In this document: one piece after another, positions 29,691-50,102 of the stretch
How the letters are laid out: each line of letters begins with the position of its first letter
How positions within the stretch are numbered: the stretch's first letter is position 1
Assembly (NCBI GenBank): GCA_040222015.1
Contig: JAVJWO010000009.1
Location: 1-50,984 of the forward strand
Length of the DNA: 50,984 nt
Direction of reading: 5' to 3'
From: Coleofasciculus chthonoplastes F2-STO-03
Lineage (GTDB): Bacteria; Cyanobacteriota; Cyanobacteriia; Cyanobacteriales; Coleofasciculaceae
Program-made: the position numbers and the translations under genes
The notes under the pieces: model-generated
Database searches by the model: none
What the model saw: the letters and a program-made list of their open reading frames with translations, nothing else
Told to the model about the DNA's origin: nothing

Positions 29691-29749
29691 AATTCAAATC
29701 CGATCTCATCTTATTGATGCTGGGCAAGAATGGAGCATGAGTCAAGGGG

Positions 29750-30913: not shown

Positions 30914-30920
30914 CTAGCGG

Positions 30921-31038
30921 GGCGGTTGAAACCGCAGCTACACAGACCAAACCCGCCTTCGCGGGTTAAAAAAACCCTAATTTTGCGGTTAGTCCGCGTA
31001 GGCGGACTTTGTTTGTATAGCTGCGATTTTAATCGCCA
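30921..31038. repeat. Long imperfect inverted repeat with nested hairpins (dispersed cyanobacterial element)
   Basis: GGCGGTTGAAACCGCAGCTACACAGAC ... GTTTGTATAGCTGCGATTTTAATCGCC. Confidence 0.75.
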
Positions 31039-31132
31039 GGGCTTAAGTTAACTAAATTAATTTTTTCTTGAGAGAGGCTACATAAATCATTTTACATGAC
31101 TCCACCAGAAGTTAGTATTAAAGAGTATATCA

Positions 31133-32455
31133 ATGGATAATCAAAACCCTGATTTATTAGAAAAAATTCGTCAGCAATTTGAAACGAGTCCTTATCCCAT
31201 CAATCCCCTAGAACATTCTCCAAAAACTGATAGCTCATGGCTGTATATCCAAAATTTAATCACTCCCTATTATCTGAGAAATCAAAGAGTCCTTGAAACG
31301 CCAGGAAAAATTATTTTAGACGCAGGCTGTGGCACAGGATACTCATCCTTAGTTTTAGCTGAAGCGAATCCGGGCGCACAGATTATTGGTGTTGACTTAT
31401 CCGAAAAGTCAGTTGCTATTGCCCAACAGAGATTACAGGTTCATGGATTTGAGAAAGCTGAGTTCTATCCTATATCCATTGAAGAATTACCCAAACTTGG
31501 CAAAGAATTTGATTATATCAACTGTGATGAAGTTCTTTATCTCTTGCCTAACCCGGTGAGCGCCTTGCAGATAATGCGGTCAGTCTTAAAACCTGAGGGG
31601 ATCATTCGCAGCAATCTTCATAGCTCCGTTAATCGCTTCCCTTATTTTCGTGCCCAGGAATTATTTAAAATGATGGGTTTGATGGATGATACTCCCCAAG
31701 ACATGGCGATGGAACTGGTTTGTGAGACAATGAAAGCCTTAAAAGACCAAGTGCTGCTCAAGAGGCAAACTTGGAATGCGTCGTTTGAAGTGAACAGAAA
31801 TAATATTTTAACCAATTATTTGCTTCAGGGTGATAAAGGCTTCACTATTCCGGAAATGTTCTCTATCTTAGAGGCGTCTGGATTAGAATTCATTAGCATG
31901 GTGAATTGGCGGCAATGGGACTTAATCAGCCTATTCAAAGAGCCAGACGATTTGCCCGTGTTTTTGGGAATGAGCTTACCAGAGACTTCTCTACAGGAGC
32001 GGCTGCATCTATTTGAACTCTTACATCCGGTTCACCGACTGCTGGACTTTTGGTGTGGGCATCCCCATCAAGCTCAATCCTGGATACCTGTTACCGAATG
32101 GACGAATTCTGACTGGCAGGACGTCCGGGTGCATTTGCATCCTCAGCTCAGAACACCAGCCGTGAGGGATGAAATGATCAGGTGTATCACTCAACTCAAC
32201 CCGTTTGAAATCAGTAAGCATCTGCCCTTGAGGGGAGTGCAGTCCTTGCTAGATAGTACCATCGCCGCTTGCCTATTGCCCCTGTTGGAATCGGCTCAGC
32301 CGATGTCATCTCTGGTAGAACGATGGCAGCAATTGCGCCCTGTGCATCCCCTCACCTTGGAAGCGACTACACCAGAGGAGGCTTTTGAACTGGTGAGACA
32401 AGCCCTGACTGGGTTAGAGGATCATGGCTATGTGCTGCTAGAACGCCAATCTTGA
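31133..32455 (+). CDS. Class I SAM-dependent methyltransferase
   Basis: ILDAGCGTG, IIGVDLS, FDYINCDEVLY, LKPEG. Confidence 0.9.
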   Translation: MDNQNPDLLEKIRQQFETSPYPINPLEHSPKTDSSWLYIQNLITPYYLRNQRVLETPGKIILDAGCGTGYSSLVLAEANPGAQIIGVDLSEKSVAIAQQRLQVHGFEKAEFYPISIEELPKLGKEFDYINCDEVLYLLPNPVSALQIMRSVLKPEGIIRSNLHSSVNRFPYFRAQELFKMMGLMDDTPQDMAMELVCETMKALKDQVLLKRQTWNASFEVNRNNILTNYLLQGDKGFTIPEMFSILEASGLEFISMVNWRQWDLISLFKEPDDLPVFLGMSLPETSLQERLHLFELLHPVHRLLDFWCGHPHQAQSWIPVTEWTNSDWQDVRVHLHPQLRTPAVRDEMIRCITQLNPFEISKHLPLRGVQSLLDSTIAACLLPLLESAQPMSSLVERWQQLRPVHPLTLEATTPEEAFELVRQALTGLEDHGYVLLERQS

Positions 32456-32516
32456 GGGATTGGGAACCCGGAGAAAAATTTTTTTGCGGCGTGATGATCG
32501 GAAATCTGGCAGAAGT

Positions 32517-32523
32517 GGGTAAG
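32517..32523 (+). promoter_or_regulatory. SigF-type promoter element of pilA
   Basis: GGGTAAG about 55 nt upstream of the pilin ATG, matching the motif known for cyanobacterial pilA1 promoters. Confidence 0.65.
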
Positions 32524-32576
32524 CTACATCCAGGAGATAAAACTTAAGCATCCCGCACCTCAAGGAGAAACCGCTC

Positions 32577-33119
32577 ATGAAAACTGAACTCAAAGCCAAG
32601 TTCCTGCAACACCTGAACCAGAAAAAACAAGATGATGGGGGATTTACCCTCATTGAACTACTCGTTGTTATCATTATTATCGGTATTCTATCGGCTATTG
32701 CCCTTCCCTCCTTCCTCAACCAGGCAAACAAAGCCAAGCAGTCGGAAGCTAAGCAATACGCTGGCTCTATGAATAGAGCGCAACAAGCCTACTATTTGGA
32801 AAAGAGTGGCTTTTCAAACGAAATTGGTCAACTAGGTCTTGGTATCACTACCCAAAGTGCCAACTACCAGTACTCAATTGTTGAAAACACAGCTAGTACC
32901 GCCGTAAGCAATGAAGCAATATCTTTGAAACCAGCTCTCAAGTCTTATGTAGGAGGTGTGAAGCTGGGTACAGTTGCAGCAACAAGTGAGGCAACCACTC
33001 TAGCTATCTTGTGTGAAAGCAATAATGTTGGCATACGAACCACTCCATTGGGTGGTGCGACTTTTAGCGGTAATGAACCAGTCTGTAATACCGGTAGTAA
33101 CTGGGAGCGTCTTGAATGA
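32577..33119 (+). CDS. pilA: Type IV major pilin
   Basis: Class III signal GG|FTLIELLVVIIIIGILSAIALP; C-terminal Cys pair; AAGGAG RBS. Confidence 0.93.
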   Translation: MKTELKAKFLQHLNQKKQDDGGFTLIELLVVIIIIGILSAIALPSFLNQANKAKQSEAKQYAGSMNRAQQAYYLEKSGFSNEIGQLGLGITTQSANYQYSIVENTASTAVSNEAISLKPALKSYVGGVKLGTVAATSEATTLAILCESNNVGIRTTPLGGATFSGNEPVCNTGSNWERLE

Positions 33120-33162
33120 TAAAGTAATACTTTTGATTTTTCAATCAAGTCTCCAGTTTTCT

Positions 33163-33192
33163 GAGAGTGGGTAGAGTTCTCTACCCACTCTC
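33163..33192 (+). terminator. Perfect stem-loop downstream of pilA, no U-tract
   Basis: GAGAGTGGGTAGAG-TT-CTCTACCCACTCTC. Confidence 0.7.
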
Positions 33193-33281
33193 TGTATCCA
33201 CTGTAAAGCGACCCGCTCACCACCCCATCACTCCCATAAGTTGATTGTTTAAGGACTGAATGTTTTTCGTGGTTTTAAATC

Positions 33282-35495
33282 ATGATTGCTAAGGCTTTTT
33301 CTTCTGATCATGCTGATTGGCAACAGCAAGCCAGTAAGTATTTAACTACAGGCAACTATACCAAAGCAGCACAACTATATGAGCAAGCGATTATCGCAGA
33401 CCCTACTGTCCAATCTAACTACTGGCATTTGGGACTAACATTCTTGCTACAAGGTCAAGAAATAGAAGCTCAAACCACTTGGATGCTGGCGATGGGGGAG
33501 GGTGAACCTGAACAAATAGACCAATGGGCAGAGGAACTAATTCAGGTTTTGAGGACAGAAGCAGAACGACGACAGTCTATTAAAGATTATCCAGTTGCCT
33601 GGGCAATCTGCCAACATATCCGGGAGATTACTCCAGCCAATATTGATAATCTATTGTATTTAATTCATCTATCTATCCAGCTAGAGACATTTACTGGAGA
33701 TGAACTAACAGATTTGGGAGTCATTGAACTGCTACAGAGTCAGCAAACGGTAGAGTTTGATACTAATTTACTCTTGCAAGTCTTACGAAGTATTTTAAAC
33801 TACGCGCCGTTAACTCCGTCAACGTTTGAATTTGCTCAAGCTTGTTCACCTTACATCCCTAATTCTAAGGCTTTAATTAAGGTATTACTATCCGCTGCTC
33901 ACCACATTGCTTTTACTCGACTAGAGTTTGCCCTAGCCGCACGTTTTCTAGAACTCTGTCTGCAAATAGATGAGCGCCACCTAGAAGCTTTATGGCTTCT
34001 AGCGAACTGTTACCAAAAATCGGGTCAGCATGAGCAGGGTATCGAAACGGCTAAATTAGCCTATTCCATTTGTCAAAATTTACCTGATAAGATTTTTTCT
34101 AATTTTCATCTCCTCCGCTGTTTGATGGAAGCTGGGGGAAAGTGGGCAGAATCTGTTTTGATATGTCAACGACAGGAATCGTTACTGGAATCACTGTTTG
34201 AAGAAAACCCTCAAAATCTGGATCAGGGTAGGACATTGCGACTCATCAATTCTACCTTCTTTTTCCCTTACTTTCGCGATACTCCCAAAATTAATCAACG
34301 TCTGAAAAATCAGCTATCTCAGCTGTGTCAGTCTAATATTGAAGTTTATGCTAATCGCTCATTCTCTCAGCAAAAAATTGCAAAAGCTTCTAAACCATTG
34401 AAAATTGGTTACCTTTCTAGTTACTTAAGAACTCATTCTGTAGGCTGGCTAATACGATGGCTGTTTCATTATCACAACCATCATCATTTTCAAGTTTATA
34501 CCTACTTCGTTAACTATAAACAAATCAATGACCCTCTCCAAGACTGGTATATCGAAAAGTCTGATCAATCCTATGATGGAGGATTTAAGGGTTTAGAGAT
34601 AGCTGAAAAAATTTGTAGGGATGAAATCGATATTTTAATTGATCTAGATAGCCTAACCTTGGATATATCCTGTGAGGTGATGGCACTAAAACCTGCTCCC
34701 ATTCAAGTCACTTGGCTAGGTTGGGATGCATCAGGGATACCTGCCATCGATTATTATATTGCTGATCCTTATGTCTTACCAGAGTCTGCCCAGGATTACT
34801 ATAGAGAAAAAATCTGGCGCTTACCCCAAACCTATATCGCTGTTGATGGTTTTGAAGTTGCTGTGCCGACTTTGCGCCGCGATGAGCTAGATATTCCTGG
34901 CGATGCCGTGGTATATGTCAGCGCTCAGACAGGATACAAGCGGCATTTAGACACTGTAAGATTACAGATGCAGATTATTAAAGCGGTTCCGAATAGCTAC
35001 TTCTTAATCAAAGGAGCGGGAGATCAAGAATCGCTCAAAAACTTCTTTATCCAAATTGCCGAAGCAGAAGGAGTCAGTCCAGAGCGCTTACGTTTTTTGT
35101 CAATCACTCCATCTGAGGCGATTCACCGAGCCAATTTGAGTATTGCTGATGTTGTGTTAGATACTTATCCTTACAATGGAGCAACTACAACTCTAGAAAC
35201 ATTGTGGAGGGGTATTCCCTTAGTTACACGAGTTGGACAGCAATTTGCAGCTCGTAACAGTTATACCATGATGATGAATGTAGGTGTTACAGAAGGCATT
35301 GCTTGGACTGATGAAGAGTATGTAGAGTGGGGAGTGCGCTTAGGCAAAGATGAAACATTGCGACAAGAAATTGCCTGGAAACTACGAAAGTCGCGACACA
35401 CCGCCCCTCTTTGGAATGCCAAACAGTTTACCCGTGAAATGGAAAATGCCTATGAACAAATGTGGAAAACTTATTTTATTAGTAGCCAAGGTTAA
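33282..35495 (+). CDS. ogtA: OgtA-like O-GlcNAc transferase (GT41/SPINDLY family) with TPRs
   Basis: LKIGYLS, HSVGWL, KPAPIQVTWLG, VLDTYPYNGATTTLE; directly downstream of pilA. Confidence 0.85.
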   Translation: MIAKAFSSDHADWQQQASKYLTTGNYTKAAQLYEQAIIADPTVQSNYWHLGLTFLLQGQEIEAQTTWMLAMGEGEPEQIDQWAEELIQVLRTEAERRQSIKDYPVAWAICQHIREITPANIDNLLYLIHLSIQLETFTGDELTDLGVIELLQSQQTVEFDTNLLLQVLRSILNYAPLTPSTFEFAQACSPYIPNSKALIKVLLSAAHHIAFTRLEFALAARFLELCLQIDERHLEALWLLANCYQKSGQHEQGIETAKLAYSICQNLPDKIFSNFHLLRCLMEAGGKWAESVLICQRQESLLESLFEENPQNLDQGRTLRLINSTFFFPYFRDTPKINQRLKNQLSQLCQSNIEVYANRSFSQQKIAKASKPLKIGYLSSYLRTHSVGWLIRWLFHYHNHHHFQVYTYFVNYKQINDPLQDWYIEKSDQSYDGGFKGLEIAEKICRDEIDILIDLDSLTLDISCEVMALKPAPIQVTWLGWDASGIPAIDYYIADPYVLPESAQDYYREKIWRLPQTYIAVDGFEVAVPTLRRDELDIPGDAVVYVSAQTGYKRHLDTVRLQMQIIKAVPNSYFLIKGAGDQESLKNFFIQIAEAEGVSPERLRFLSITPSEAIHRANLSIADVVLDTYPYNGATTTLETLWRGIPLVTRVGQQFAARNSYTMMMNVGVTEGIAWTDEEYVEWGVRLGKDETLRQEIAWKLRKSRHTAPLWNAKQFTREMENAYEQMWKTYFISSQG

Positions 35496-35579
35496 ACCGA
35501 AGTAGTTAGCAGAGTGTACTTGGTTACATAAAACATTAGAAAAAATTATTCATTTTGTGATTTTCTGAAATAGATTAAT

Positions 35580-36994
35580 ATGAAAAATCAATTCGTTATT
35601 ATATTAAAAAATCAACATTATAGTATCATATTTCTTGTAATATTAGTATTCTGGTTTCTCATCTTTATTACGAGTGGTTCCCTTTTTTCTGGATATCACT
35701 TTACAGATGATCATGAAATTGTTGCGATAAATTTTGATGTAGAAATTGAGAAAATAAATATAATTGAATTATTTATTCAATGGATTAAAAAAGACTTAAT
35801 TTCTGGCAGACTCCGACCCTTCTATTATATTCATAGAATAATAGAAACAAGAGTTTTTGGACTAAATTTTAGTTTGTGGTCTATTTACACTGGATTATTA
35901 GGTTCCTTGCAGTGCTAAGTGAGAAAGAGAATCATAAATTTTTATATGAAATATTACTAATAGTCCTGGTGTTAATGATGTCTTTGTCGAAAGAAAGTTT
36001 TATTCTTATCATTCCAGCTATCGCATTTATTAAAATTTGGATGTCTCATCACTTTCAAACAGTATCATGGCAGCAAGCTATAGTACAAAACTTTTTATCA
36101 ATTGCTCTTTTAGGATTAATTATTGTATCCGAAATTATAGTATTAATTTTTTTTGTAGGACTAACTCCTGATATCGGCTACGCCGGAATTGATAAATTTA
36201 GTATTTCAAGAATTATCAGTGCCGCTAAAGACTTACACCAGGCAGGAGATGGGTGGATAGCATTAGCTAGTTTATTAGCAATACTATTATTAGGTATGCG
36301 TCATTCGTTTCCAGCGATACTCAGAACTTTAAAGTCTCTATATCTTTATCTGACTTTATTCTTCTTAGTGGTAGTACCTCAAATCTTACTCTATGCAAAA
36401 TCTGGTATCTCTCACCGCTACATATTACCAGGAATCATAGGTTATTCGTTCTTACTCATAGCTCTTTATAGTTTACTGAACCAAAAGTATAGATTAGTGA
36501 CTAAGTTAATTTTAGTGTTAATCTTAATTAGCCTCGGATCAAAATTGACTTTAGCGTGGGAAGAAGCCCACACTTTTGCGCTCGAAGGTAAATCCACAAA
36601 TGCTTTACTGGAAACTATAGAAAAAAACACTACAACGAATGACCCAATTGTAATTGTTACGAACCCCACTATCTATTATGAATGGACTTTTTCAATTAAA
36701 AAATATCTTGATTATGTTTCTCAAAGACATAACTTATATTTAGATGCCTATGGAAACCCAAAAAGTAAATTTTATATAAAAGTAGAAAGCTATTATAATT
36801 ATAATACTTTAACTCAATTAAACAATAAAAGTAGAGTTCGTTGCATTATTGCCTTCCCAGAAATGAAAAGAATATTTTTAAAAAATTCATATAATTGGTT
36901 TGCAAAAGATAATTTTGCAGAATATGAATTTAGCCATTTTAACCGAAATTTAAATAAAAATTCAAAGATTTATCTTTACTGTAAAAAGACATAA
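35580..36994 (+). pseudogene. Polytopic membrane protein (GT-C-like), split into two frames (35580-35918 and 35876-36994)
   Basis: YHFTDD...GRLRP in ORF1; SKES and RYILP in ORF2; frame change near 35900. Confidence 0.6.
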
Positions 36995-37017
36995 AGTTTT
37001 ACTCCTTATTACTACAT

Positions 37018-39975
37018 TTATGGAATAAACTGCTCGATTTTTTGATTTACAAAACTGTCTGTCGAATAAAATGGAATGCTATCAGCTTTGACTTTTGCAA
37101 TCGCTTGCTTATTTTCATACTCTAAAACAAGCCGAGCTTTGAGGCGAGGTAAAAGGGCTTCCCATTGAATTATACTCAACCTTCCCACTAGCGAAATATT
37201 TACACTGTCACTAATATCCAAATCTTCTTGCATAAGAAGATTCATCACGATACCAGATAAAAGGAAATTGGCTTCCTCATCAGCAATGCCACTGGTGTCT
37301 ATGAGGAGTGTCATATCGCTTCTTTGGGAATGTGTAGCAACTGATCTCATAGCTTCTTCTAAGTCTCTTCCGATTACCTCTTCCGGTTGAGACCAATCTG
37401 GGAAGATAATTAAATTAATGTCTCTCAGATTTAAAGGCAAGAGGGTAGCATCAACCAAAGCCGCACTAACGATTTCTGCCATTTTTGACCATGAGAATTT
37501 TTTCGCTTGTGCCAAACCCGCCGCAATTAACGAGTTGCGAACATCGGGTTTTTGCACATCACAAAGCGCATTCGTTAGTTCATTACTATCAGTGTCATTC
37601 ACATATAATGCCGCTTCCCCAGCCACTTCAGGAATAGATGCATTGGCACAAGTTATCACTGGACAACCACAAGCCATTGCCTCCAAAATTGGCAATCCAA
37701 ACCCTTCATACTTTGAGGGATAAACTAATGAAACAGCACCAGAATACGCGGCTCTCAATTCCTGATCACTAAGTTGCAACATATGGACAACACTACCCGA
37801 CGAATAAGCTCTTAACTCTGGAGAAAGCAGGGAACCGCTACCCGTGCAAACAATATCAAAACCCTGTTTACTATACAGTTGTGCAAAAGCTTGGAAGAAG
37901 AGAATTGTATTCTTATAACCACCTCCAGTACCTACCAGAATAAAATAAGGCTTTGAGATGCCGTATTTCGTGCGGAAACTATTGACTTCTTCCAAATTCG
38001 CTGGATAAAAGCTACTTTTAACTCCACAAGGAGCCACTCTTACCAATTCTGGAGATATCTCAGGGAAAAACCTGACCAAATCACGCGCCGTATTTTCTGA
38101 AATAGCCAGGAAAGCAGACGCCTGTTGAATCGCACGATGCTTTTCTTGCCACATGGGATTATTCATATCCCATCCCAGAACTTCTGGAATCATGTCATAC
38201 GCCATAAACACAGAGGGTGTTGACAGGGGTGTTGTATAGTAAGTAGAAATAAATAAATCAGCGTCTTCCTCATCACAGATTTGCTGTAACATTGTCCGGT
38301 CAGCATCTGTACTGCTATAGTCATAAAGTGGTACACTTCGATAACGGATTCCAGGAATTTGGGGCGCTGTTCCAGATCGGTCAAGTATCACAATATACTT
38401 AGCAAATTCTTTATCTGACCATTCTTCTAGTAACGAAAACCAGACACGGGCAATTCCAGTTTTAAACAGTTGGAAAAATACACCATCAATAATAACTTTA
38501 GGCAAGGACTGATAGTATTTTTTTAAAAAAATCCCACGGTTGCGACTATGCAATGCTAACTGATCGAGTCGCCCATCTCGACCAGTAACGTTGGTTTTGT
38601 GACGAAAAAACTGATCGATATCAGGAATGGGAGTAAGCGGGTATCCTGCTATTTTGGCTCGATGAGACAAGTCTACATCATCCCAATATCCTGGTCCGTA
38701 ATCCTCACACCATCCACCCAAGGCTTGCATTACAGATTTTCTTGCACATAAAGCCCAGCCTTCTAGGTAGTTTTCTCTAATCTCATTCTGGACAAAGCCT
38801 GGTCCTGCGATACCGTCACATGCACAATCACAAAGGTATTTAATTGGTAAATCCAGAATTTCTACATCATTATTTAAAAATAAAACGTATTCGCTTTTTG
38901 CTATATCTAATCCTTGATTATTTGCTGCTGAGAATCCCTGATTATCTTCATTACGAATTAGAATTACATTATGTTTGTTACAAAATTCATTTATTGCAGA
39001 TTTTGCTGCTGGAGTACTACCATTATCTATAAAAATTACTTCAGTATTCTGCAAGTGTTCAAAGTTATTTTCCCATAACTCTAGTAGCTCGCTATGATCC
39101 CACCAAGGTACAACTACACTGACTAAGTTAACTTTGTTTTTATTTTCTTCACTCCCTTTTTCTGGAAAATTACCATTAGCTATAGGTTGATTTAATAATT
39201 GTTTTTTCGGTTTATAAGTTCCAACAAACAATAGTTGATAAGCACATAATTCCAAAAATTCTTCTTCCGAAACATTTGATAGAGCAAGATTACCAACTCT
39301 AACGACACGTTCAGGTTCCTTTGGTCGAAGCGAGTATAATTCTTTCCCTCCTAGATAAAACACTGAATTACATTCAACATCAGCTTGATATAAAAGTTCA
39401 ACAAAATCTTTTTTTGTAAAAAATCTTAAGTGGGTACGATCCAGAATTCCCTCGTCTTGATATTGCCAGGAACCAAGTTCTACAACTTGTCTTAATGTAG
39501 GTAAATGTCTTATATTAGGAATACTTGCAACCATAGTACCATTGAACCTTAGGAAAGCCGCATAGCGACGAGCTATTGTCCAAGGCTCTCTTAAATGTTC
39601 AAGAATATCTGCAAAAATAATGCAATCAAACTCTCCTTGATTAAATGGAGGTTCAAAAGTTTCTAATTCAGAATGGTAAGTCTGATCAAGATTTTTTGTA
39701 GCATAGTAAAAAGCTGAATCATTTAACTCTATTCCAACAATATATCGTCTTGGATTCTGTTCTTTTAAGGCTTTACCTAACATTCCAGCTCCACAACCCA
39801 CATCAAGAATTTTTAGAGCATTTTTGGGTACAACTGAAACTATTTCCTTACGTATATGCCGATAATATTCGGGAAGCTCGCTGAAGGGTTGCACCTTGGA
39901 TAAGTGTTTACTGTTTTGGCTCGTATAGCTATTTATGTCAGGATTCGACATATCTTTTTCCATCCTATAAACCAC
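37018..39975 (-). CDS. Methyltransferase, GT2 and GT4 triple-domain protein
   Basis: LDVGCGAG / ADILEH / [17 protein letters not shown] / NQGFSAANN / [20 protein letters not shown]. Confidence 0.92.
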
Positions 39976-40159: not shown

Positions 40160-40591
40160 TTAATTTTCTGCTTCAGGAGAGATTTCTGAGCGATCGCGCT
40201 CTCCACTTCCCTCACTCTCTTCTCCCACCTGCTGCTGTAACTGCTCCAACTGTACCTTATACCCTGCCTCCTGAGGATGCAACTCAACCAACCTTTCCAA
40301 CGGCGCGATCGCACCTTGAGTATCCTGCATCTGTAACCGTATCTCCACCAAGCCTTCCAGCGCCACCCGATTATCCGGTTCCCTCTCTAAAACCAACTCA
40401 TACCCCCGTTCCTTAGCCGCTAGCTGTTGATTAACCGACGTCTCTTCCGGGGTAGCCTTCGTCTGCGGTTGCTGTAAGGCATTACTATAGAGACCAAATA
40501 GCCCATAGCCCGTAGAACCCAGAAAGGCTACCATTGAGCAGACAACCAGAATTCGTTTGAGGGGATTTTCCTTGGGTTTCTTATCCGACAT
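40160..40591 (-). CDS. Small membrane-anchored TPR protein
   Basis: N-terminal TM; GYELVLEREPDN...AIAPLERLVELHP. Confidence 0.8.
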   Translation of the reverse strand: MSDKKPKENPLKRILVVCSMVAFLGSTGYGLFGLYSNALQQPQTKATPEETSVNQQLAAKERGYELVLEREPDNRVALEGLVEIRLQMQDTQGAIAPLERLVELHPQEAGYKVQLEQLQQQVGEESEGSGERDRSEISPEAEN

Positions 40592-41358
40592 ACCTACCTA
40601 CAGGTAAATGAATCTGCCAGCCAATCAAGTCCTGGCTAATCGCTCAAGTCAGCTAAAGCGAGCGAGAACGACCGAATTTAACCAGCTTGAGCATTGAACA
40701 GTGAACCTGAGTTCACAGCTTCGCCCTATCCTTAACCTACCCAGATCTCGACCCAGAGCGATCACCTAATCTAAATAACACCTCAACCAATCGTATCGGG
40801 CGCAAAGGTTTAAGCCGAGGGCGACCCGATCGAATTGAATGGATTGGAGTTGTTCATTAATGCAGGCGGGTCGCCCCAACCAGGATCGCCAGTTCCCTTT
40901 CGGTCAATTCCATCATGCGATCGCAGGTTCTATTCGGGTCAATTCAATCGTGCGATCGGGTTCCATTCCCGTCAATTTTATCGGGCGCACGGGGCGTGCG
41001 CCCCTACGTGTCGGTGAAAAACAGTGCGATCGCCTGTTCCCTTCCAGTCAATTTAATCGTGCGATCGCAGCCTGATTCCCAGCAAGCGCCAATCTTGTTC
41101 CCTCCCCTTCGAGGGGAGGGTTAGGGAGGGGTCGCGTCAAAGTATTGCTTTATTGATTAAGTTTTGGGCGACCCGATAGTTTGTCGGGGCGGGTTTTACC
41201 GATAACCTGTAAGCCAAAACGGGTAACTTATGTAAACCCGCCCTGTTTCTAGCGTTGTTCATTCATGCAGGCATCTCGCCCCGACAAGGTGCGATCGCGA
41301 AATTTCTCCAACTCCGGTAAGATAGACAGCTACACTCGTAGACTATCCCCATGCCCCA

Positions 41359-42447
41359 ATGACTCGATTTCCCCATGACCAATTTGCCAAGGACTATCTT
41401 GAGCAACTCTTATCCCCCATCGGAAACGTTCAAACCAGTCGCAACATTGCTGGAGAAGTGCGCGAGGTTGACGTCTTATTTATCCCCACCTCTATCTCAA
41501 ATGACTACCTCCTCTCACTGGGACTTTTAGGGCGCTTCGCCACAACCTCCGCCGTCTTTGAACCCTTTCGCAACGCCGTTACCCCCAGTCAAATTCGCAG
41601 TTGTCTTTCTAAACTGTTTGACCTATATGCTGAATTAGAACGACGCGCCAGACGGGACTCTACTTCCCTGAACCCTAGTGAACTCCCCCGACTATGGATA
41701 CTTACCCCCACCGCCTCAACCCCCTTACTCGATAGCTTTGGCGCCTTGGGTGACGAACAAAACCGGTTCAATGGACTCTATTTTCTTCACGAGGCGTTCC
41801 GAACAGCCATCGTTGTCATCCACCAACTCCCTCGTACCCCCCAAACCCTCTGGTTGAGACTTCTCGGAAAAGGTAGAGTCCAACAACAAGCCATCGAGGA
41901 GATCACCGCATTACCTGAAGACAGCCAACGGCGGCAGTCTACGCTAGAGTTATTGTATAACTTGCAAGCCAACTTACAAGCTAACCAAGACCAAAAATTA
42001 GACACAGAGGAGAGGGAGTTAATTATGGCGTTAGCACCCCTATATCGGCAACAACTGGATGCCGCGCTGCAACGAGGCATGGAACAAGGATTGCAACAAG
42101 GCATACAACAAGGACAACGACTGATTATCGAAAACCTCCTCCAGACTCGTCTGGGACAGTTGACCCCCACCCTGACTGCTTTAATCACTCCCTTATCGGC
42201 ATTACCCCCTCAGCAATTAACTCCGTTTCTCCTGCAATTATCTCAACTTGAAAACAGTGAATCAGCCATTCAACAAGCACAGTATTTTATTGTCGAAAAT
42301 TTGCTGAAAATTCGATTTGGAGAATTGGATGAACAACTCACCGCACGGGTCACTTCTTTATTAGAATTACCCCCCCAACAGTTAAGCCAATACCTCTTGC
42401 AATTATCTCAGGTATCCCGTGAGCAACTCTTAGCTCGATTTCCCTAA
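41359..42447 (+). CDS. Rpn-like putative PD-(D/E)XK protein with GxQQ repeats and a duplicated C-terminal helical module
   Basis: HDQFAK, EVREVDVLF, FEPFRN, TLWLRLLGKG, GMEQGLQQGIQQG; internal AGGGAG-N6-ATG at 42025. Confidence 0.8.
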   Translation: MTRFPHDQFAKDYLEQLLSPIGNVQTSRNIAGEVREVDVLFIPTSISNDYLLSLGLLGRFATTSAVFEPFRNAVTPSQIRSCLSKLFDLYAELERRARRDSTSLNPSELPRLWILTPTASTPLLDSFGALGDEQNRFNGLYFLHEAFRTAIVVIHQLPRTPQTLWLRLLGKGRVQQQAIEEITALPEDSQRRQSTLELLYNLQANLQANQDQKLDTEERELIMALAPLYRQQLDAALQRGMEQGLQQGIQQGQRLIIENLLQTRLGQLTPTLTALITPLSALPPQQLTPFLLQLSQLENSESAIQQAQYFIVENLLKIRFGELDEQLTARVTSLLELPPQQLSQYLLQLSQVSREQLLARFP

Positions 42448-43505
42448 GCCAGTCCTTAGATCGGCGTCAATGACGAACCGTGCGATCGCTCCCTTGTTCC
42501 TATTCCCGTCAATTTTATCGGGCGCACGGGGCGTGCGCCCCTACAAGGATCGCTTGTTTCCTTGCGGTCAATGGAATCGTGCGATCGCTCCCTTGTTCCT
42601 ATTCCCATCAATTTGATTGGGCGCACGTCTGTGCGCCCCTACGTGCGGGCAACAAACGGTGCGATCACCTGTTCTCATCCGGTCAATTGAATCATGTGAT
42701 CGCTCCCTTATGCCCAGCAAGCGCCAATCTTTCTTGTTCCCTCCCCTTCGAGGGTCCGGTTAGGGAGGGGTAGCGTCAAAGTATTGCTTTGTTGATTAAG
42801 TAAAGAGCGACCCGATCAAATTGAATGAATTGGAGTTATTAATTAATGCAGGCATCTCGCCCCGACAAGGATCACCTGTTTCCTTTGGGTCAATTGAATC
42901 ATGCGATCACCTGTTTCCTTCCAGTCAATTGAATCATGCGATCGTGCCAATCTTTCTTGTTCCCTCCCCTCGAAGGGGAGGGTTAGGGAGAGGTCAGATC
43001 AAGGTATTGCTTTGTTGATTTAGTATTGGGCGACCCGATCAAATTAAATGGATTGGAGTTGTTCATTAATGCAGGCGGGTCGCCCCTACCAGAATCGCCT
43101 GTTCCCTTTCGGTCAATTCCATCATGCGATCGCCTGTTCTGTTTAGGTCAATGGAATCGTGCGATCGCCGGTTGTTCCCATTTCCATCAATTGTATTGGG
43201 CGCAAAGGTTTGAGCCGAGGGCGACCCGATCCAATTGAATGGATTGGAGTTGTTCATTGATGCAGGCGGGTCGCCCCTACCAGAATCGCCTGTTTCCTTG
43301 GGGTCAATTCAATGGTGCGATCGCTTCCTTATTCCTACTTCCGTCAATTTGATCGGGCGCAGGTCGGTCATTGGTGTCAATTTAAGCTTCGTTGTGCCCA
43401 TATCATTGCAGAACACTCACTATTTTCTCGGTGACATTTACGGGTAGCCTTAACCAATCCTAAGATTTGCTAAAATATGAACTAACCATGACTTAGGGAT
43501 GGACA

Positions 43506-43901
43506 ATGGCTCCTGCTACTGATATTCACCAAAAAGCGATCACGCTGATTGGACAGCTACCTCAGGACAAATTGATAGCAGTTGTGCAGCTATTGGAATT
43601 TTTAGCGCAGCCGCCTCAGTCGAGTACAGTTAGTCCCCAGGAAACCCAATTGCTTGAGGTGATAGAGAGCCATATCTCTGAAGAGGAACAAATCCATCTA
43701 AACACATTACGCGATCGCTGTGAATGGGATGAACTGAGCGAAGCGGAATATCAGGAACTAATTGGTTACGAAGATTTGTTAGAGGAAAAGCGAGTAAAAC
43801 GATTAGAAGCCCTGATCCAACTAGCGCAGATTAGGAATATTGACCTAATCCGCTTAAACCAACAAATTCAGTTGAGATCCCAGCCTTCCCATGCCGTCTG
43901 A
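43506..43901 (+). CDS. Helical protein upstream of HNH, putative antitoxin
   Basis: LSEAEYQEL...RVKRLEALIQLAQIR; overlaps the HNH start. Confidence 0.7.
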   Translation: MAPATDIHQKAITLIGQLPQDKLIAVVQLLEFLAQPPQSSTVSPQETQLLEVIESHISEEEQIHLNTLRDRCEWDELSEAEYQELIGYEDLLEEKRVKRLEALIQLAQIRNIDLIRLNQQIQLRSQPSHAV

Positions 43902-44325
43902 CTATGAACGAATCCCCACAGCACTGAGACAGGAAATCGCTCAACAGGCAAAGCATCGATGCGAATACTGCCGTTGCCCAGATGAATTCTCTCCTGACAG
44001 CTTTACCGTTGATCATATCAAGCCTCGACAACTCGGCGGAGCAACCACTACTGAAAATCTAGCCTGGGCGTGTTTCGGCTGTAATGGTCGTAAATACACC
44101 CGGACTGTTTATCCTGACCCAAAGACGGGACAAGAGATTGCCCTATTCAATCCTCGTCAGCAGAATTGGACAGAGCATTTTGATTGGACTGAAGATTTAA
44201 CTCAACTACTCGGTCGAACCCCCTGCGGTCGTGCCACCATCGCAGCACTTGCACTCAACCGTCCGGGAGTCGTAAATCTTCGACGCCTACTTATCTTAGC
44301 CGGACTGCATCCACCGAATCAGTGA
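43891..44325 (+). CDS. HNH endonuclease
   Basis: RCEYC, VDHIKP, NLAWACFGCN, LFNPR. Confidence 0.92.
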   Translation: MPSDYERIPTALRQEIAQQAKHRCEYCRCPDEFSPDSFTVDHIKPRQLGGATTTENLAWACFGCNGRKYTRTVYPDPKTGQEIALFNPRQQNWTEHFDWTEDLTQLLGRTPCGRATIAALALNRPGVVNLRRLLILAGLHPPNQ

Positions 44326-44758
44326 ACAGAAAGAATCCAAAAGCTTACTATTTGAATGGATTGTAATTATTCATTGATGAGGTGCATCTCGCCCCTACCA
44401 GGATCGCCTGTTCCCTTTCGGTCAATTCCATCATGCGATCGCAGGTTCCATTTCCGTCAATTGTATTGGGCGCAAAGGTTTGAGCCGAGGGCGACCCGAT
44501 CGAATTGAATGGATTGGAGTTGTTCATTAATGCAGGCGGGTCGCCCCTACCAGGATCGCCTGTTCCCTTTCGGTCAATTCCATCATGCGATCGCCTGTTC
44601 TGTTTAGGTCAATTCAATCGTGCGATCGCAGGTTCCATTCCCGTCAATTTTATCGGGCGCACGGGGCGTGCGCCCCTACGTGTCGGTGAAAAACAGTGCG
44701 ATCGCCTGTTCCCTTCTGGTCAATTCCATCATGCGATCGCGCCAAGCTTATCTGCCAA

Positions 44759-45166
44759 TCATACTACCCAATTTTCCCAAGTCAAGCCAGGAATTCGGGA
44801 AAATTCTTTCACGTTATTGGTAACTAAAGTGATATTATGAGCAAGAGCTTGGCAAGCAATAAGTAAATCCATTGCACCAATCACCATGCCCATTTTTTCT
44901 AATTCTGCTCGCATTTTACCATAAGTTTGTGTTGTTTGGACATCAAAAGGTAAAATTTCCAGCATCATTATAAACTGACTCAACGCCGCCCTGTTTTGTT
45001 CTTGACGCTGACTTTTGTAAGCTCCATACTCCAGTTCAGCCACTGTAATAGATGATACGCCAATATCAGATGGACTGAGGCTTTGAAACTTGGCGAGTAC
45101 GTTGGCGGGTTTTTGTCTGATAATGTAGATGCAAATATTAGTATCCAGCAAAAATCTTATTGCCAT
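44759..45166 (-). CDS. vapC: VapC PIN-domain toxin
   Basis: LLDTNICI, ITVAEL.YG, DLLIA, LVTNN. Confidence 0.94.
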   Translation of the reverse strand: MAIRFLLDTNICIYIIRQKPANVLAKFQSLSPSDIGVSSITVAELEYGAYKSQRQEQNRAALSQFIMMLEILPFDVQTTQTYGKMRAELEKMGMVIGAMDLLIACQALAHNITLVTNNVKEFSRIPGLTWENWVV

Positions 45167-45387
45167 ATTTCTCTAGTTTCCAGGCTAGGCTGTTCCCGGT
45201 TCTCCATAAAGTCATCCGAAAATAGATGTAAGCTTTCTCTTAAAGTTTGCCAAGGATTAGCTTTAGGAATCAAAATCAGTACATTACCAATTTTTTTAAT
45301 GTAAACTTCGTTATCCTGGAAGTGAAATTCTTTGGGTAATATAACCGTCTGATTATCATCATTAACTAATAATTTTGCTGTCTTCAT
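45157..45387 (-). CDS. vapB: VapB (AbrB/MazE-fold) antitoxin
   Basis: TAKL...QTVILPKEF, FSDDFM; overlaps vapC. Confidence 0.9.
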   Translation of the reverse strand: MKTAKLLVNDDNQTVILPKEFHFQDNEVYIKKIGNVLILIPKANPWQTLRESLHLFSDDFMENREQPSLETREIWQ

Positions 45388-45798
45388 CTATGTTTCGTGG
45401 CTGGGTATCTAGGGAGGAAAGCTGCGCCTCCTAATAATTACAAAGATAACATAAGTATTGAACCGATCTCGCCTCTTCCCTTCCAGTCAATTCCATCATG
45501 CGATCGCAGCCTGATTCCCAGCAAGCGCCAATCTTGTTCCCTCCCCTTGAAGGGGAGGGTTAGGGAGGGGTCAAATCACGGTATTGCTTTGTTGATTAAG
45601 TTTTGGGCGACCCGATAGTTTGTCGGGGCGGGTTTTACCGATAACCTGTAAGCCAAAACGGGTAACTTATGTAAACCCGCCCTGTTTCTAGCGTTGTTCA
45701 TTAATGCAGGCATCTCGCCCCGACAAGGTGAGATCGCTTTCTTTTCTCCAACTCCGGTAAGATAGACAGCTACACTCGTAGACTATCCCCATTCCCTA

Positions 45799-46700
45799 AT
45801 GACTCGATTTCCTCACGACCAATTTGCTTGCGTAATACCTCGACCAACTCTTATCCCCGATTGGAAAAGTTACAACCAGTCACAACATTGCTGGGGAAGT
45901 GCGCGAGGTTGACGTCTTATTCATCCCCACCTCTGTCTCAAATGACTACCTCCTCTCACTGGGACTTTTAGGGCGTTTCGCCACAACGTCCGCCGTCTTT
46001 GAACCCTTTCGCAATCCTGTCACCTGCGAGCAAATTTGTGATTGTATTGCCAAACTCTTTGACCTACATCGGGAATTGAGACGACGCGCCAGACGGGAAT
46101 CCACCTCCCTGAACCCAAGTGAACTCCCCCGACTATGGATACTTACCCCCACCGCTTCAACACCCTTACTCGATAGCTTTGGCGCCTTGGGTGACGAACA
46201 AAACTGGTTAAATGGACTCTATTTTCTCCACGAGGCGTTCCGAACAGCCATCGTCGTCATCCACCAACTCCCTCGTACCCCAGAAACCCTCTGGTTGAGA
46301 CTTCTCGGAAAAGGCACGATCCAACAACAAGCCATCGAGGAAATCACCGCATTACCCGAAGACAGCCAACTACGAGAGTTTACGAAGCGAGTTATTGTAT
46401 GACTTGCAAGCCAACTTACAAGCCAACCAAGACCAAAAATTAGACCCAGAGGAGAGGGAGTTAATTATGGCATTAGCACCCCTATATCGGCAACAACTGG
46501 ATGCCGCGCTGCAACGAGGCATGGAACAAGGATTGCAACAAGGCATACAACAAGGCATACAACAAGGACAACGACTGATTATCGAAAAGGTCACTTCTTT
46601 ATTAGCATTACCTCCCCAACAGTTAAGCCAATACCTCTTGCAATTATCTCAGCTATCCCGTGAGCAACTCCTCGCTCGATTTCCTATAGCCAGTCCTTAA
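45799..46700 (+). pseudogene. Second copy of the Rpn-like gene, with two frameshifts and a C-terminal deletion; internal ORF 46467-46700 intact
   Basis: Aligns to 41359-42447; frameshifts near 45830 and 46385; about 300 bp upstream is also duplicated. Confidence 0.88.
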
Positions 46701-46881
46701 AGTGTCGTCAACAACGAACCGTGCGATCGCCTGTTCCATACCCATCAACAAAGATGGTGCGATCGCAGCCTGATTCCCAGCAAGCGCCAATCTTTCTTGT
46801 TCTCTCCCCTTCGAGGGGAGGGTTAGGGAGGTCTGATTCTTGAGAAACTGTATAACTTAATAATCATTTACAGAAATAACC

Positions 46882-47097
46882 ATGCCAGACGTACAGCTTC
46901 TTTCTCCCAAACAACATACTCTCTCTATCCAACTCGACTTGAGCCGTTCTCAAGATAAAGAAAAAGCCTTACAAATATTAGGACTCTATATCAAACGCTT
47001 TGAACTCCTGCTGAGGAAAAAATATGCCAACATCGGACAGGATGCTACAGCTTGCGCCCGTGCCATTGTCCCACTCAAGGTTACCCGATCGAATTGA
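46882..47097 (+). pseudogene. Probable 5' fragment of an unknown gene, running into a repeat
   Basis: ATG ORF whose last codons come from the ACCCGATCGAATTGA repeat. Confidence 0.45.
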
Positions 47098-47112
47098 ATG
47101 GATTGGAGTTGT

Positions 47113-47214
47113 TATAGCACTGAGCGCTTGTATGTTTACACATTAGAAATGGAGGCTTTATCAGGAGGCTTTTAGATCACTTGTACTGTAACTACGCTAG
47201 AGCGCACTGCTATA
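47113..47214. mobile_element. MITE of about 102 bp with TATAGCA...TGCTATA ends, interrupting an array-2 repeat
   Basis: Inverted ends; the host repeat stops at GATTGGAGTTGT. Confidence 0.65.
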
Positions 47215-47496
47215 ATTACAGCGTTTTCAGACTCGATGTGATACACCCTGTCCAAGAGTAGAAAAGCACTATCTCATCTTCCTGTACTACAAGGTATTGG
47301 TATTGTTGATTTAGTATTGGGCGACCCGACCCAATTGAATGGATTGGAGTTGTTCATTGATGCAGGCGGGTCGCCCCTACAATACCAGGGGTTTCATGAC
47401 ATAGCTTGGTGCGATCGCTTTCTTTTCTCCAACTCCGGTAAGATAGATTGCTACACTCGTAGACTACTGTGGAATGGGTGGGAAACCGCATAATCC

Positions 47497-49047
47497 TCAG
47501 CCTCGAATTACAACAACTCGGCGATCGCAGGCTGTCTTTGCCGACTCTGTGGTGGTGCGTTCAGCAATCGGTGGAAGTCCCTGACGCTGGTCAAAAATCA
47601 CCAGCCACCCCGTTTCCAGCCCTAACCCCGCCAGATACCGATCCAACTGCTCGAGTCCAGCTTTTATCGGGTCAGGGCGTCCCTGGCGCCATACTTTCAA
47701 CTCCATCGCCAGTGTGACATCCCCATAGCGCAGACATAAGTCCATCCGATCTGAGCCAATAGCATATTCCCGCTCTAGAGTACCGCCTCCGTTCACCACC
47801 CGATGCAAAAATGCCATCAAGACCAAATGAGGTGCAATTTCATGGTAGGGAGCGCTTTTGAGTAAAGGTTCCCCATGCTGTCGCCAAAAGCTGATAAAGG
47901 CTTGCAGCAGTTGCTCTTGATCAAGTTTCCCCTCAGGCGTTAACCAACTGGGGGAAATTTGGGGTAAGGAGGCTTGGGGGGTTTGGCTTAACACCAGAGG
48001 TAACACCTCTTGGTAAATTGGATTCGCGATCGCTAAACCGCCCTGTGAACTCATGCGACACAAGCCTAAATCAATCAGGAATTGCACATCATCTTGAGGA
48101 ATATCCTCTAACTCTTGCCCAATCAACATCGGTTCAATCACCGCCCGCACTCGGTCTTCTCGCAGAATACTAGCTAAACTATCCAGGTGAGTATCTTGGC
48201 GTTGAATCAGAATTTCTTTGGCTGTCTCAATGTGGTTTACAGTAATCGGTTGAGTCGGTTCAGTAACCAACTCTTCCACAATTTCTTTGGCTAAGGCATT
48301 CACCAACCAGGGTTGACCCTGAGTTAATGCAAACGCTCGCTCTACTGCCTCCCTCTCAAACACCTGCCCGGTTTCAGTGGTATGCTGCTCATACAATTGG
48401 GCGACTTCGGCACAGGTAAAGTTTCTCAGGGTTAGGGATTTAATCTTGATATTGAACGGACTAGAGGTATTCAGACGACGACTCCCCCCAGATGCCAGCT
48501 TATAATCTCGCACATCCCGCACCCCAATCAGCGCCATCGCCTGGGGAAATCCGTTTGGTCGCTTCGGATAACCATTTCTGAGCTGGCGTAACACAGAAAT
48601 TAAGGTTTCATCTTGCAGAGAATCAATTTCATCAATGAACACAACCAATGGACGCGAGGACTGTTGCGCCCAAGCACTCAGCGCCGCCCCAATCTGTCGC
48701 CCTGGCTCAGAGGCGGGAAACTCTGGAGGATAGAGTTCGGGGGGAAGCCAAAAGGTGGCGTCATCGTTCCAAGCATCGAGCATCGCCTTTTCCGCCGCCC
48801 CAGGATCATGGGGAAAGGCTGCGCCCACTTCTGCGGATACCATCACGGCGGTGTATTGCCCACTAGCAGTAAGGTGCTGGGCTAGGGCAAGCATGGCAGT
48901 AGTTTTGCCCGTTTGCCGAGGCGCATGGATGACAAAATAGCCCTGCTGTACAATCAGTCGCTCTAGCTGGGGTAGCCGAGCCAAGGGAGGGAGCATGTAG
49001 TGAATGTCCACTTTGCACGGTCCTGCCGTGTTAAACCATTTGGGCAT
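47497..49047 (-). CDS. P-loop (AAA-like) ATPase with C-terminal PD-(D/E)XK nuclease-like domain
   Basis: HAPRQTGKTT, VFIDEID, SPFNI, TQGQPWLV; MDLCL...MELK...GLEQL. Confidence 0.88.
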   Translation of the reverse strand: MPKWFNTAGPCKVDIHYMLPPLARLPQLERLIVQQGYFVIHAPRQTGKTTAMLALAQHLTASGQYTAVMVSAEVGAAFPHDPGAAEKAMLDAWNDDATFWLPPELYPPEFPASEPGRQIGAALSAWAQQSSRPLVVFIDEIDSLQDETLISVLRQLRNGYPKRPNGFPQAMALIGVRDVRDYKLASGGSRRLNTSSPFNIKIKSLTLRNFTCAEVAQLYEQHTTETGQVFEREAVERAFALTQGQPWLVNALAKEIVEELVTEPTQPITVNHIETAKEILIQRQDTHLDSLASILREDRVRAVIEPMLIGQELEDIPQDDVQFLIDLGLCRMSSQGGLAIANPIYQEVLPLVLSQTPQASLPQISPSWLTPEGKLDQEQLLQAFISFWRQHGEPLLKSAPYHEIAPHLVLMAFLHRVVNGGGTLEREYAIGSDRMDLCLRYGDVTLAMELKVWRQGRPDPIKAGLEQLDRYLAGLGLETGWLVIFDQRQGLPPIAERTTTESAKTACDRRVVVIRG

Positions 49048-49301
49048 GGGCAGAGAGCAGGTAAGCCATTGTTCAATCTTACTATCAAGTTGGGTTGAAT
49101 ATTCAATTGTGCGATCGCCCCCTTAGATTTCTCCTGCTGAAAAACGCTATGACACAAAGGGTGTGAGGAAAGGGCGACCCGATACAATTGAGTGGACAGG
49201 AGTTGTTAATTGATGTAGGCGGCGGGTCGCCCCTACAGGTTGTTAATTTATGTAGGCGGATGTTCAACCGCCCTAACGAATAATCACTACATTTACCAAA
49301 A

Positions 49302-50102
49302 ATGCTGACCCAATCGTCTCAATCCTTACGTCAATCTCTCTTCCCTTCCCTAATAGCCCTTCTCTGTATCATTGCCGTGGGGGGGTTACAAATTCCCCAA
49401 CTCAATCAACTCCAAGGCAAAGGCGAAAATCTTTCTCCCATAGAACTGCAACGCCAAATCGAAGCCGAAAAGGTACGCCTAAATCTCCTCCAGAAAGTAC
49501 CAACATTCGGATTTGATAACCTAGTAGCCGATTGGGTTTTTCTCAATTTCCTGCAATACTTTGGTGATGATGAAGCTCGCGATGTCACCGGCTATCAACT
49601 TAGCCCAGAATACTTTGAAGTGATTCTGACCCGTGACCCCCGCTTCTTAGACGCCTACTTTTTCCTTTCCGGTAGCACGTCCCTCTATGCTGGTATGCCA
49701 GATCGGTCAGTAGAATTAATGGAAGAAGGACTCCAGCAGCTTTCCCCGAAAGTCCCCCCCAAATCTTATTACATCTGGCGCTATAAGGGAATTGACGAAC
49801 TGTTATTCCTCGGTGACGCCCAAGCCGCCCGCCAATCCTTTGAGAAAGCCGCAGAATGGGCAAGCACTTATGAAGATGAAGAAAGTCAGTACATCGCCTC
49901 AATTTCCCACCAAACCGCCCAGTTTATTGCCCGTAATCCCTCAAGCAAATCAGCCCAAGTCAGTGCTTGGTCAATGGTGCTACAAAACGCCATGGACGAT
50001 CGCACTCGTCAACGTGCCATTAATCAGATTGAAGCACTCGGCGGCAAAGTAGTTACCACCCCAGAAGGTGCTGTGAAAATTCAACTCCCACAAAGGGATT
50101 AA
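49302..50102 (+). CDS. Membrane-anchored TPR-like protein, resembling pilin-locus accessory proteins (PilG/XapA-like)
   Basis: N-terminal TM; LVADWVFLNFLQYFGD and DPRFLDAY motifs; family recalled from memory. Confidence 0.65.
   Translation: MLTQSSQSLRQSLFPSLIALLCIIAVGGLQIPQLNQLQGKGENLSPIELQRQIEAEKVRLNLLQKVPTFGFDNLVADWVFLNFLQYFGDDEARDVTGYQLSPEYFEVILTRDPRFLDAYFFLSGSTSLYAGMPDRSVELMEEGLQQLSPKVPPKSYYIWRYKGIDELLFLGDAQAARQSFEKAAEWASTYEDEESQYIASISHQTAQFIARNPSSKSAQVSAWSMVLQNAMDDRTRQRAINQIEALGGKVVTTPEGAVKIQLPQRD

Follow-up and report, generated by a model that had tools for sequence, protein, structure and literature searches.

Organization of the locus

Here we describe a variable chain of genes and short repeats in the mat-forming cyanobacterium Coleofasciculus chthonoplastes F2-STO-03, in which the palindrome HIP1 (GCGATCGC) delimits most of the successive blocks. 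The window, that is, the whole stretch of DNA analyzed, comprises 50,984 nucleotides of contig JAVJWO010000009.1 (GenBank assembly GCA_040222015.1). It is labeled C9 below, C-numbers being contigs of this source genome, G000 (7.72 Mb, 45% GC, 219 contigs, and 6058 HIP1 sites, or 0.78 per kb); G001-G008 are the Coleofasciculus genomes compared with it, and L-numbers are individual DNA stretches taken from genomes or metagenomes. The array occupies positions 40758..49118 (8.4 kb) in the interval between a small TPR-like gene and a 266-aa gene, which are divergently oriented, and adjoins a cluster of pilin and glycosylation genes. Its scaffold is all in one orientation. The blocks, between whole HIP1 ends, measure from 26 nt to 1.4 kb; many of them contain no gene, and duplicates are common (167-300 nt at 86-98% identity). 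The locus probably evolves by short-homology crossovers at HIP1, with the repetitive extragenic palindromes (REPs) of the scaffold as passengers.

Six cargo slots claimed by the initial annotation (Rpn-like, HNH pair, vapBC, broken Rpn-like, a gene stub, and ATPase) were confirmed at their places (Table 1), and exact HIP1 sites do lie at or near the edges it had listed, at 41291, 44698, 44733, 46723, and 49111. Within the Rpn-like reading frame are four-residue repeats of variable number and, at 42025, an internal ATG preceded by a purine-rich run that resembles a ribosome-binding site. Its product scored 21.7 bits against TIGR01784 (E=1.5e-4), below the cut-off of 52.1, and matched DUF4351 at the cut-off; a PDB profile search with the family gave no match. 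In the broken copy a small C-terminal reading frame is still open. The vapBC cargo is predicted to encode a PIN toxin with an adjoining VapB antitoxin: VapC (44759-45166) matched NF047863 with 184 bits (cut-off 140), and VapB (45157-45387) matched NF040493 with 69.5 bits (cut-off 60). The AAA-family protein has a putative C-terminal nuclease-like motif, read by eye only. The stub lost about 650 bp between two near-identical 13-base stretches, neither of them HIP1; therefore, short-homology joining is active at the locus.

A PADLOC check found no complete defense system among the cargo of G000 itself, where the HNH gene matched only PtuB-type domains. A cargo pair of G001 (L006, 9307-10355) matches the PADLOC candidate system PDC-M02A/B, and similar reading frames occur in G002-G004. 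Elsewhere in the window, a truncated ATPase gene (16914-17252), located beside heptamer tandem repeats, matches PADLOC HEC-01A.

Cutting the array at HIP1 and near-HIP1 sites yields a small alphabet of blocks: a 35-nt HIP1-to-HIP1 unit, versions of it with a short GTAG REP, a long REP, or a CCCTCCCC hairpin, and the gene-bearing blocks. The scaffold holds four short GGGCGCAC...GTGCGCCCCTAC REPs and five CCCTCCCC...GGGAGGG hairpins in addition to the 35-nt units. Between 40700 and 49300, there are nine left and ten right arms of the long REP. Just six copies have both exact 10-mer arms (40819, 43028, 43219, 44489, 47319, and 49172); three copies have the variant right arm CATCTCGCCCC (41166, 45605, and 42805), those at 41166 and 45605 each containing a nested GGGCGGGTTT...AAACCCGCCC element; and half copies lie at 44352-44398 and 47083-47113. 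The initial figure of about 11 elements is thus reached only by counting variant and half copies. Two small elements are nested in a long REP at 47113-47291. That of about 103 bp (47113..47215), a small mobile element, has copies on C175 and C49 with 99% identity; for one of the two, copies with 99-100% identity occur at other places in G000 and in G002. A CRISPR array with spacer acquisition was considered and rejected, the 35-nt units being related to each other throughout. Across the genome, a spacing of 35 nt is only weakly overrepresented (23 vs about 10-15).

Table 1. Features of the array and its flanks (window coordinates)
Feature	Coordinates	Strand	Remarks
Left flank, small TPR-like gene	40160..40591	-	Conserved; next to the 266-aa gene in other genera
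Left edge, leader CTATC.TTAA..TACCCA	40726..40765	+	Conserved; HIP1-like site 14 nt downstream (40758, one mismatch)
Scaffold run 1	40758..41290	.	Long REP 40819; 35-nt units 40882, 40917, 41026; short REP 40983; CCCT hairpin 41100; long and nested REP 41166-41285
Rpn-like block	41291..42481	+	HIP1 to HIP1; open reading frame 41359-42447, 362 aa
Scaffold run 2	42482..43400	.	Short REPs 42520, 42619; 35-nt units; CCCT hairpins 42739, 42962; long REPs 42805, 43028, 43219
Two-gene module: 131-aa partner and HNH endonuclease (144 aa)	43506..44325	+	Left edge off HIP1
Scaffold run 3	44352..44740	.	Half long REP; 35-nt units; long REP 44489; short REP 44655
vapBC block	44733..45499	-	Starts at HIP1 44733; genes 44759-45387
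Scaffold run 4	45463..45729	.	95% identical to 41030-41298, i.e., a recent duplicate
Second Rpn-like block	45730..46722	+	Copy at 45799-46700 frameshifted, internally deleted
Stub	46882-47097 (remnant 46830..47082)	+	Leftover of a two-gene module intact in G005
Two small dispersed elements, about 103 and 75 bp	47113..47291	.	Nested in long REP
Scaffold piece	47290..47466	.	Long REP 47319; lone Rpn-block leader from HIP1 47411
AAA-family ATPase, 516 aa	47497..49047	-	Right edge at HIP1 49111
Long GTAG REP	49172..49236	-	Just beyond the last HIP1 of the array
Right flank, 266-aa cyanobacterial gene	49302..50102	+	Conserved; Coleofasciculus records 91-95% identical (protein)

Variation of the locus among genomes

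A gap of 157-257 bp separates the flanking genes in 10 genomes from other genera. Within Coleofasciculus, the interval measures 4.3 kb in G007, 4.4 kb in G008, 8.7 kb in G000, and 9.4 kb in G002, and there are about 16 kb of blocks in G001, which has another left neighbor. The scaffold was present in all four congeners and in none of the 36 other-genus genomes searched. In 10 of 11 other-genus stretches, a HIP1-like site in register with 40758 lies 13-14 nt beyond the leader; the right end of the array in G000 has modest similarity to the empty site.

The content of the locus was expected by the initial annotation to vary, and its size, order, and copy number do differ among the congeneric genomes. 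In G000 the order is Rpn, HNH pair, vapBC, broken Rpn, stub, AAA; in G007, vapBC, Rpn, HNH pair; and in G008, vapBC, Rpn, Rpn. G002 contains another PIN pair, the HNH pair, Rpn, a DUF4365 pair, part of the stub module, and two further Rpn copies, in this order. In G005 a glycosyltransferase gene is followed by the intact stub module, a PIN pair, Rpn, and Rpn remnants, and in G001 by the HNH pair, three Rpn copies, the DUF4365 pair, two vapB remnants, a deleted HNH pair, and AAA. The claim that cargo occurs in both orientations holds within the array, but the orientation of each block is the same in every genome compared. Blocks are never inverted: among 5458 alignments of at least 40 nt between eight array stretches, only one was on the minus strand, and it was a self-palindrome.

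The HNH pair has recently been exchanged between species, since its four-fold sites are identical to those of G003, a more distant species, at 116 of 120 positions vs 96 of 124 in the flanking gene (p=6e-6).

Misassembly of short reads in a repeat-rich region is a highly improbable reason for the differences in order. The assemblies of G003, G004, and G006 do break inside the array, but independent metagenome contigs (L017 and L018) reproduce the G001 junctions, the blocks differ by 3-20% in sequence between genomes, and contigs from the public run X1 span G000-like stretches at 42000-42531 and 43265-44486. Of 24 public sequencing runs, 4 were examined, at 88% likeness, and none covered half of the stretch; about 6 of 15 listed joints (of 58) from their contigs touch HIP1, a hint only, as these are other strains with short sides.

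Several observations concern the neighborhood of the array. Many cyanobacterial genera keep the 18-nt leader motif, with the HIP1-like site 13-14 nt downstream, in front of the small TPR gene (window 40726-40765; L010-L013, L250-L254, L256, L258, L093), and in G001 and G005 the motif precedes a glycosyltransferase gene. The motif is possibly a promoter or regulator site in which the position of HIP1 is fixed. Together with a second array of the window (21000-26000, array 1), the array brackets a pilin gene (32577-33119) and glycosyltransferase and methyltransferase genes (26028-39975) that differ among species; in G001, G004, and G005, the left neighbor of the array is a different glycosylation gene set.

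HIP1 as the joint of the array

The array has 22 exact HIP1 sites, 19 of which fall within 3155 non-coding bases, corresponding to 6.0 per kb vs 0.58 per kb in non-coding DNA genome-wide. Non-coding HIP1 is also enriched beside cargo-type genes (73/175 vs 1024/5311, p=3e-11), with an excess in all three bins of non-coding length. In this comparison, genes were taken from our own open reading frame caller (5799 calls), both arrays of the window were excluded, and 175 Uma2, PIN, XisI, and Rpn genes formed the cargo-type set against 5311 other genes.

In alignments of eight array stretches, 431 of the 2147 right-hand ends coincide with the base immediately following HIP1, and 26.4% lie within +7..+11 of HIP1 vs 1.6% in the null, the pairs not being independent. 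Because of this dependence, and because a conserved 8-mer attracts alignment ends, we used a graph test in which both sides of a joint are recognizable. The graph of left and right contexts has 12 independent cycles at HIP1 vs 0-5 at 14 other offsets; in the comparison with 11 other scaffold 8-mers, there are 10 cycles at HIP1 and 0-4 at the others. Junction types, 28 in all, could be assigned to 138 of 222 sites; the other 84, many of them intragenic with fixed neighbors, were unclassified. Blocks reassort at HIP1, and the joints fall inside GCGATCGC with little flanking homology. The Rpn block is preceded by eight left classes that share 0-3 exact bases before HIP1 (4-12 of 30 positions), and the junctions Rpn-end/Rpn-start, Rpn-end/DUF4365 start, and f-end/Rpn-start share at most three bases beyond it. 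Shared stretches of 0-3 bases beside HIP1 are too little for RecA.

This bears on an alternative that we regard as possible, if less so than crossovers at HIP1 by a wide measure: the array may be built by RecA recombination and slippage among the long repeats, HIP1 only seeming to be the joint, being conserved and splitting the repeats conveniently. In accordance with it, a 35-nt unit on one side of many joints (a_end is the left class in 84/138) gives longer homology, the long duplicates described above exist, and some joints in population contigs pass through paralogous Rpn genes. Selection is moreover reported to conserve HIP1 (PMC13756078). The RecA explanation is weakened by the several junctions with no more than three shared bases beyond HIP1. 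Furthermore, both sides of the joints are recognizable multi-copy blocks, and therefore conservation of HIP1 alone cannot create reassortment.

The sites are also polar. GT or AT precedes HIP1 at 19/19 non-coding sites of the array, compared with 0/3 intragenic array sites and 305/1014 non-coding sites genome-wide, the array count being inflated by duplication; a binomial test by junction class (10/11) was not used, as the classes were counted by hand and the patterns contained those letters. A trans-acting enzyme could recombine a polar site (G/A)T-GCGATCGC, excising and re-inserting blocks in an integron-like manner with no linked integrase. This flank rule would fit such an enzyme, as would the lack of inversions although HIP1 is palindromic, the one-sided polarity of unrelated arrays (8/9 on C45, 9/10 on C211, and 7/8 on C7), and the changes of order between species. 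We nevertheless consider the enzyme unlikely. Polarity is mixed in array 1 and on C117, and duplication can pass it on, the copies of one array not being independent. Indels across the genome are not bounded by HIP1, and two Rpn-block junctions use one-mismatch sites without GT. The search of the genome for an integron integrase remained below the cut-off (TIGR02249, best 21.9 bits, cut-off 265), none of four tyrosine recombinases is on this contig, and no excised circle was seen. A broader proposition, that in Coleofasciculus directional recombination at (G/A)T-GCGATCGC builds integron-like toxin-antitoxin and defense arrays at many loci with no linked integrase, and that this is the native job of HIP1, is only marginally less doubtful.

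A number of results weigh against crossovers at HIP1 as the explanation of the array. Per-site alignment ends are 5.6 at the far end of the long REP vs 4.8 at HIP1, with no cycles at the REP end. Some cargo edges are off HIP1, namely the left edges of the HNH pair (which differs in at least five genomes), the AAA gene, and the stub module. Array 1 has one cycle at HIP1 (46 edges vs 32-39 elsewhere) and mixed polarity, with no inversions. In a survey of 60 stretches of 20 kb from G002, G005, and G007 against G000 (673 kb aligned, 93.7% identity), HIP1 was found at both ends of 0/58 clean indels and 1/219 replacements outside the arrays, and at one end of 9/277 indels and replacements, approximately as by chance. 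It is therefore not the general route of gene gain and loss in the genome, and this role of HIP1 was rejected. Three of four tests of cargo vs core identity were not significant (p=0.09, 0.19, and 0.37). Finally, the events were deduced by comparing sequences, none being observed directly, and some block orders may be wrong because most of the genomes compared are short-read assemblies.

Long GTAG REPs and RAYT genes

The long REP GGGCGACCCG lies on the minus strand and consists of a GTAG foot, a 10-bp stem, a loop of about 40 nt, and a return stem, forming a GC-rich hairpin. It is a single long-loop GTAG REP and not a scaffold-organizing unit. The REPIN-like scaffold of two REPs proposed initially was not borne out; HIP1 organizes the array. 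In the genome, 166 sites start with GTAGGGGCGACC, and 131 have both arms; the element is scattered over 80 contigs, and 96 of 160 copies are solitary (more than 3 kb to the next). It is not enriched beside cargo-type genes (9/175 vs 179/5311, p=0.20), which is the pattern that the initial annotation had named as contrary to its association of repeats with cargo. As a cargo marker, any GTAGGGGCG REP was likewise rejected (39/175 vs 1255/5311, p=0.72). An Rfam scan for structured RNA gave nothing over threshold and one sub-threshold, unrelated match.

Capture and movement of the cargo by REP-associated tyrosine transposases (RAYTs) acting on the REP hairpins would be another conceivable mechanism. 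RAYT-like genes exist in the genome; the GTAGGGGCGGGTTT REP, the type nested in the array, flanks the ones on C18 and C45, and the short-REP type of the array flanks that on C62. In addition, the right end of the HNH module is fused to half of a long REP. However, there is no RAYT gene in 22 loci of the genus or in the window, and none of 13 RAYT-like loci in G000 has GTAGGGGCGACCCG within 600 bp, so that the flanking of a RAYT by GGGCGACCCG REPs, which had been looked for, was not found; a flanking copy may have been missed because the assembly is in 219 contigs. Given also the lack of cargo enrichment at this REP, the lack of cycles at its end, and the existence of HIP1-jointed loci without it (C45:27.7-30.4 kb and C211), the RAYT mechanism is quite improbable. 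The RAYT-like genes C18:49541-50137, C45:9883-10512, and C62:1122-1829 lie with their cognate REPs within HIP1-bounded blocks, and in the C62 gene, a REP is inside the reading frame.

Other loci in the genome

Outside the window, 41 of 2168 non-coding repeat ends are in register at HIP1, and up to 31 loci are obtained when coding ends are counted. Local repeats ending at HIP1 occur in G000 on C24, C45, C62, C211, C7, C193, C28, and C6 (L230-L249). These loci carry ParE, PIN, BrnT, Fic, HigB, Phd, GmrSD, RelA/SpoT, DUF29, and Uma2 genes, as well as DarT with a macro-domain gene. Many toxin-antitoxin and defense families were found among 69 scanned proteins (64 of the 96 called in 20 such loci, and five from relatives), the loci being chosen, not sampled. 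The generality of mechanism suggested by the initial annotation is thus retained insofar as unrelated repeats at other loci of the genome end at HIP1 and accompany toxin-antitoxin or defense cargo, but accessory DNA elsewhere is not HIP1-bounded. The supposed common design with array 1 extends to its HIP1-delimited blocks, but the signal of block reassortment there is weak. The content of array 1 (Rpn, PIN, HNH, and Uma2) varies among G002, G003, G007, and G008. In G005, one more copy of the HNH pair (L157, 3832-4899) lies between two 29-nt direct repeats centered on HIP1; this is a single case.

A possible course of events

From these comparisons we infer the following sequence of events, route of transfer, and action of an enzyme at HIP1. 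The chain would have grown at the conserved HIP1 site between the two divergent genes, where direct repeats may first have arisen by duplication between two HIP1 sites at the leader, and dense HIP1 sites in the same context would then have favored further events. Crossovers with 8-11 shared bases at HIP1 would duplicate, delete, and swap blocks without inversion. Orientation would be preserved by longer homology, in either a flanking gene or the scaffold, that anchors the opposite end of each event, as might occur in unequal exchange between chromosome copies or in homology-anchored uptake of transforming DNA. New cargo could enter by a HIP1 site at one end and a chance microhomology at the other, and later move as a HIP1-to-HIP1 block; a new order may arise through duplication and subsequent differential loss, and DNA of relatives, anchored in the flank or the scaffold, would swap blocks. 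The GTAG REPs are presumably passengers put into the 35-nt unit by RAYT enzymes encoded elsewhere. Resistance to loss or defense against phage may explain the persistence of the toxin-antitoxin and nuclease genes. The likeliest trigger would be a methylation-linked nick or a repair hotspot at HIP1. The comEC and dprA families are present, and there are 11 matches to the C5 methyltransferase family.

For three decades, HIP1 has lacked an established function, and the evidence for recombination quoted in this context consists of one deletion and plasmid experiments (PMC5861425, PMC13756078). The locus described here offers natural, repeated, and comparable HIP1 joints; its unrearranged HIP1 sites within genes can act as internal controls, its one-sided flank rule can be tested, and it can serve as a test bed for HIP1 function. 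If HIP1 is the active joint, cyanobacteria could cheaply build and trade arrays of defense and toxin-antitoxin genes with no need of an integrase, and new anti-phage genes would be worth seeking in them; PDC-M02, DarTG, and GmrSD matches are present in this and sister loci. Even as a product of simple repeat turnover, the array would be a hypervariable locus mapped in detail, next to the pilin glycosylation genes.

Comparison with known systems

HIP1 recombination, REPs, rpn arrays, and defense hotspots are already known separately. What seems to be new is a standing, polar array of HIP1-jointed blocks that has been compared across a genus: no description of HIP1-jointed gene arrays was found in the literature searched, whose coverage excluded subscription journals, and no paper there pairs Coleofasciculus with HIP1.

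Arrays of rpn genes have been reported to arise by tandem duplication, and RpnL/RpnS are toxin-antitoxin genes (PMC10400941). The present array resembles them in tandem duplication, in the variable four-residue repeats, and perhaps in an internal start. In contrast, the protein here is below the TIGR01784 cut-off, the ends of the duplications are fixed at HIP1, and other cargo is interleaved.

GTAG REPs and REPtrons are described in PMC3733652 and PMC6006769, and the REPIN, two inverted palindromic REPs with a spacer, in PMC3116915. The array shares with them the GTAG foot, the GC-rich stem, more than 150 dispersed copies, RAYT genes in the genome, and nested repeats. Unlike a REPIN, its element is one long-loop hairpin with no adjoining RAYT, and the REPs lie inside the blocks and do not set the reassorting joints.

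Sedentary chromosomal integrons and clusters of attC sites lacking integrases (CALINs) combine a fixed platform with a variable order of toxin-antitoxin and defense genes. The fixed chromosomal locus and the variable cassette order are features in common. However, there is no IntI here, the cargo is on both strands, the joints are an 8-bp palindrome found genome-wide, many blocks are geneless, and duplicates are frequent.

In Nostocaceae, the small repeats SDR5 are tied to HIP1, being inserted between its third and fourth base (PMC4390886, PMC5861425, PMC13756078). As in the array, small repeats are linked to HIP1 sites; but SDR5 splits HIP1, whereas the array blocks keep a whole HIP1 at both ends.

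The closest parallel is HIP1-mediated recombination itself. HIP1 has been reported to support site-specific and illegitimate recombination (PMC4390886), with HIP1-flanked excision and site-specific plasmid recombination on record (PMC13756078, PMC4390886, PMC5861425), among them the smtB excision in Synechococcus PCC 6301 and plasmid recombination in PCC 7002 (PMC13756078, PMC4390886). It has also been described as a homology- and methylation-dependent enhancer of transformation efficiency (10.1101/2024.09.10.611283). As in the array, crossovers occur at GCGATCGC with little other homology. The known cases, however, are single deletions or laboratory plasmids, whereas the array is a standing, polar, gene-bearing chain of dozens of HIP1-jointed blocks that varies across the genus.

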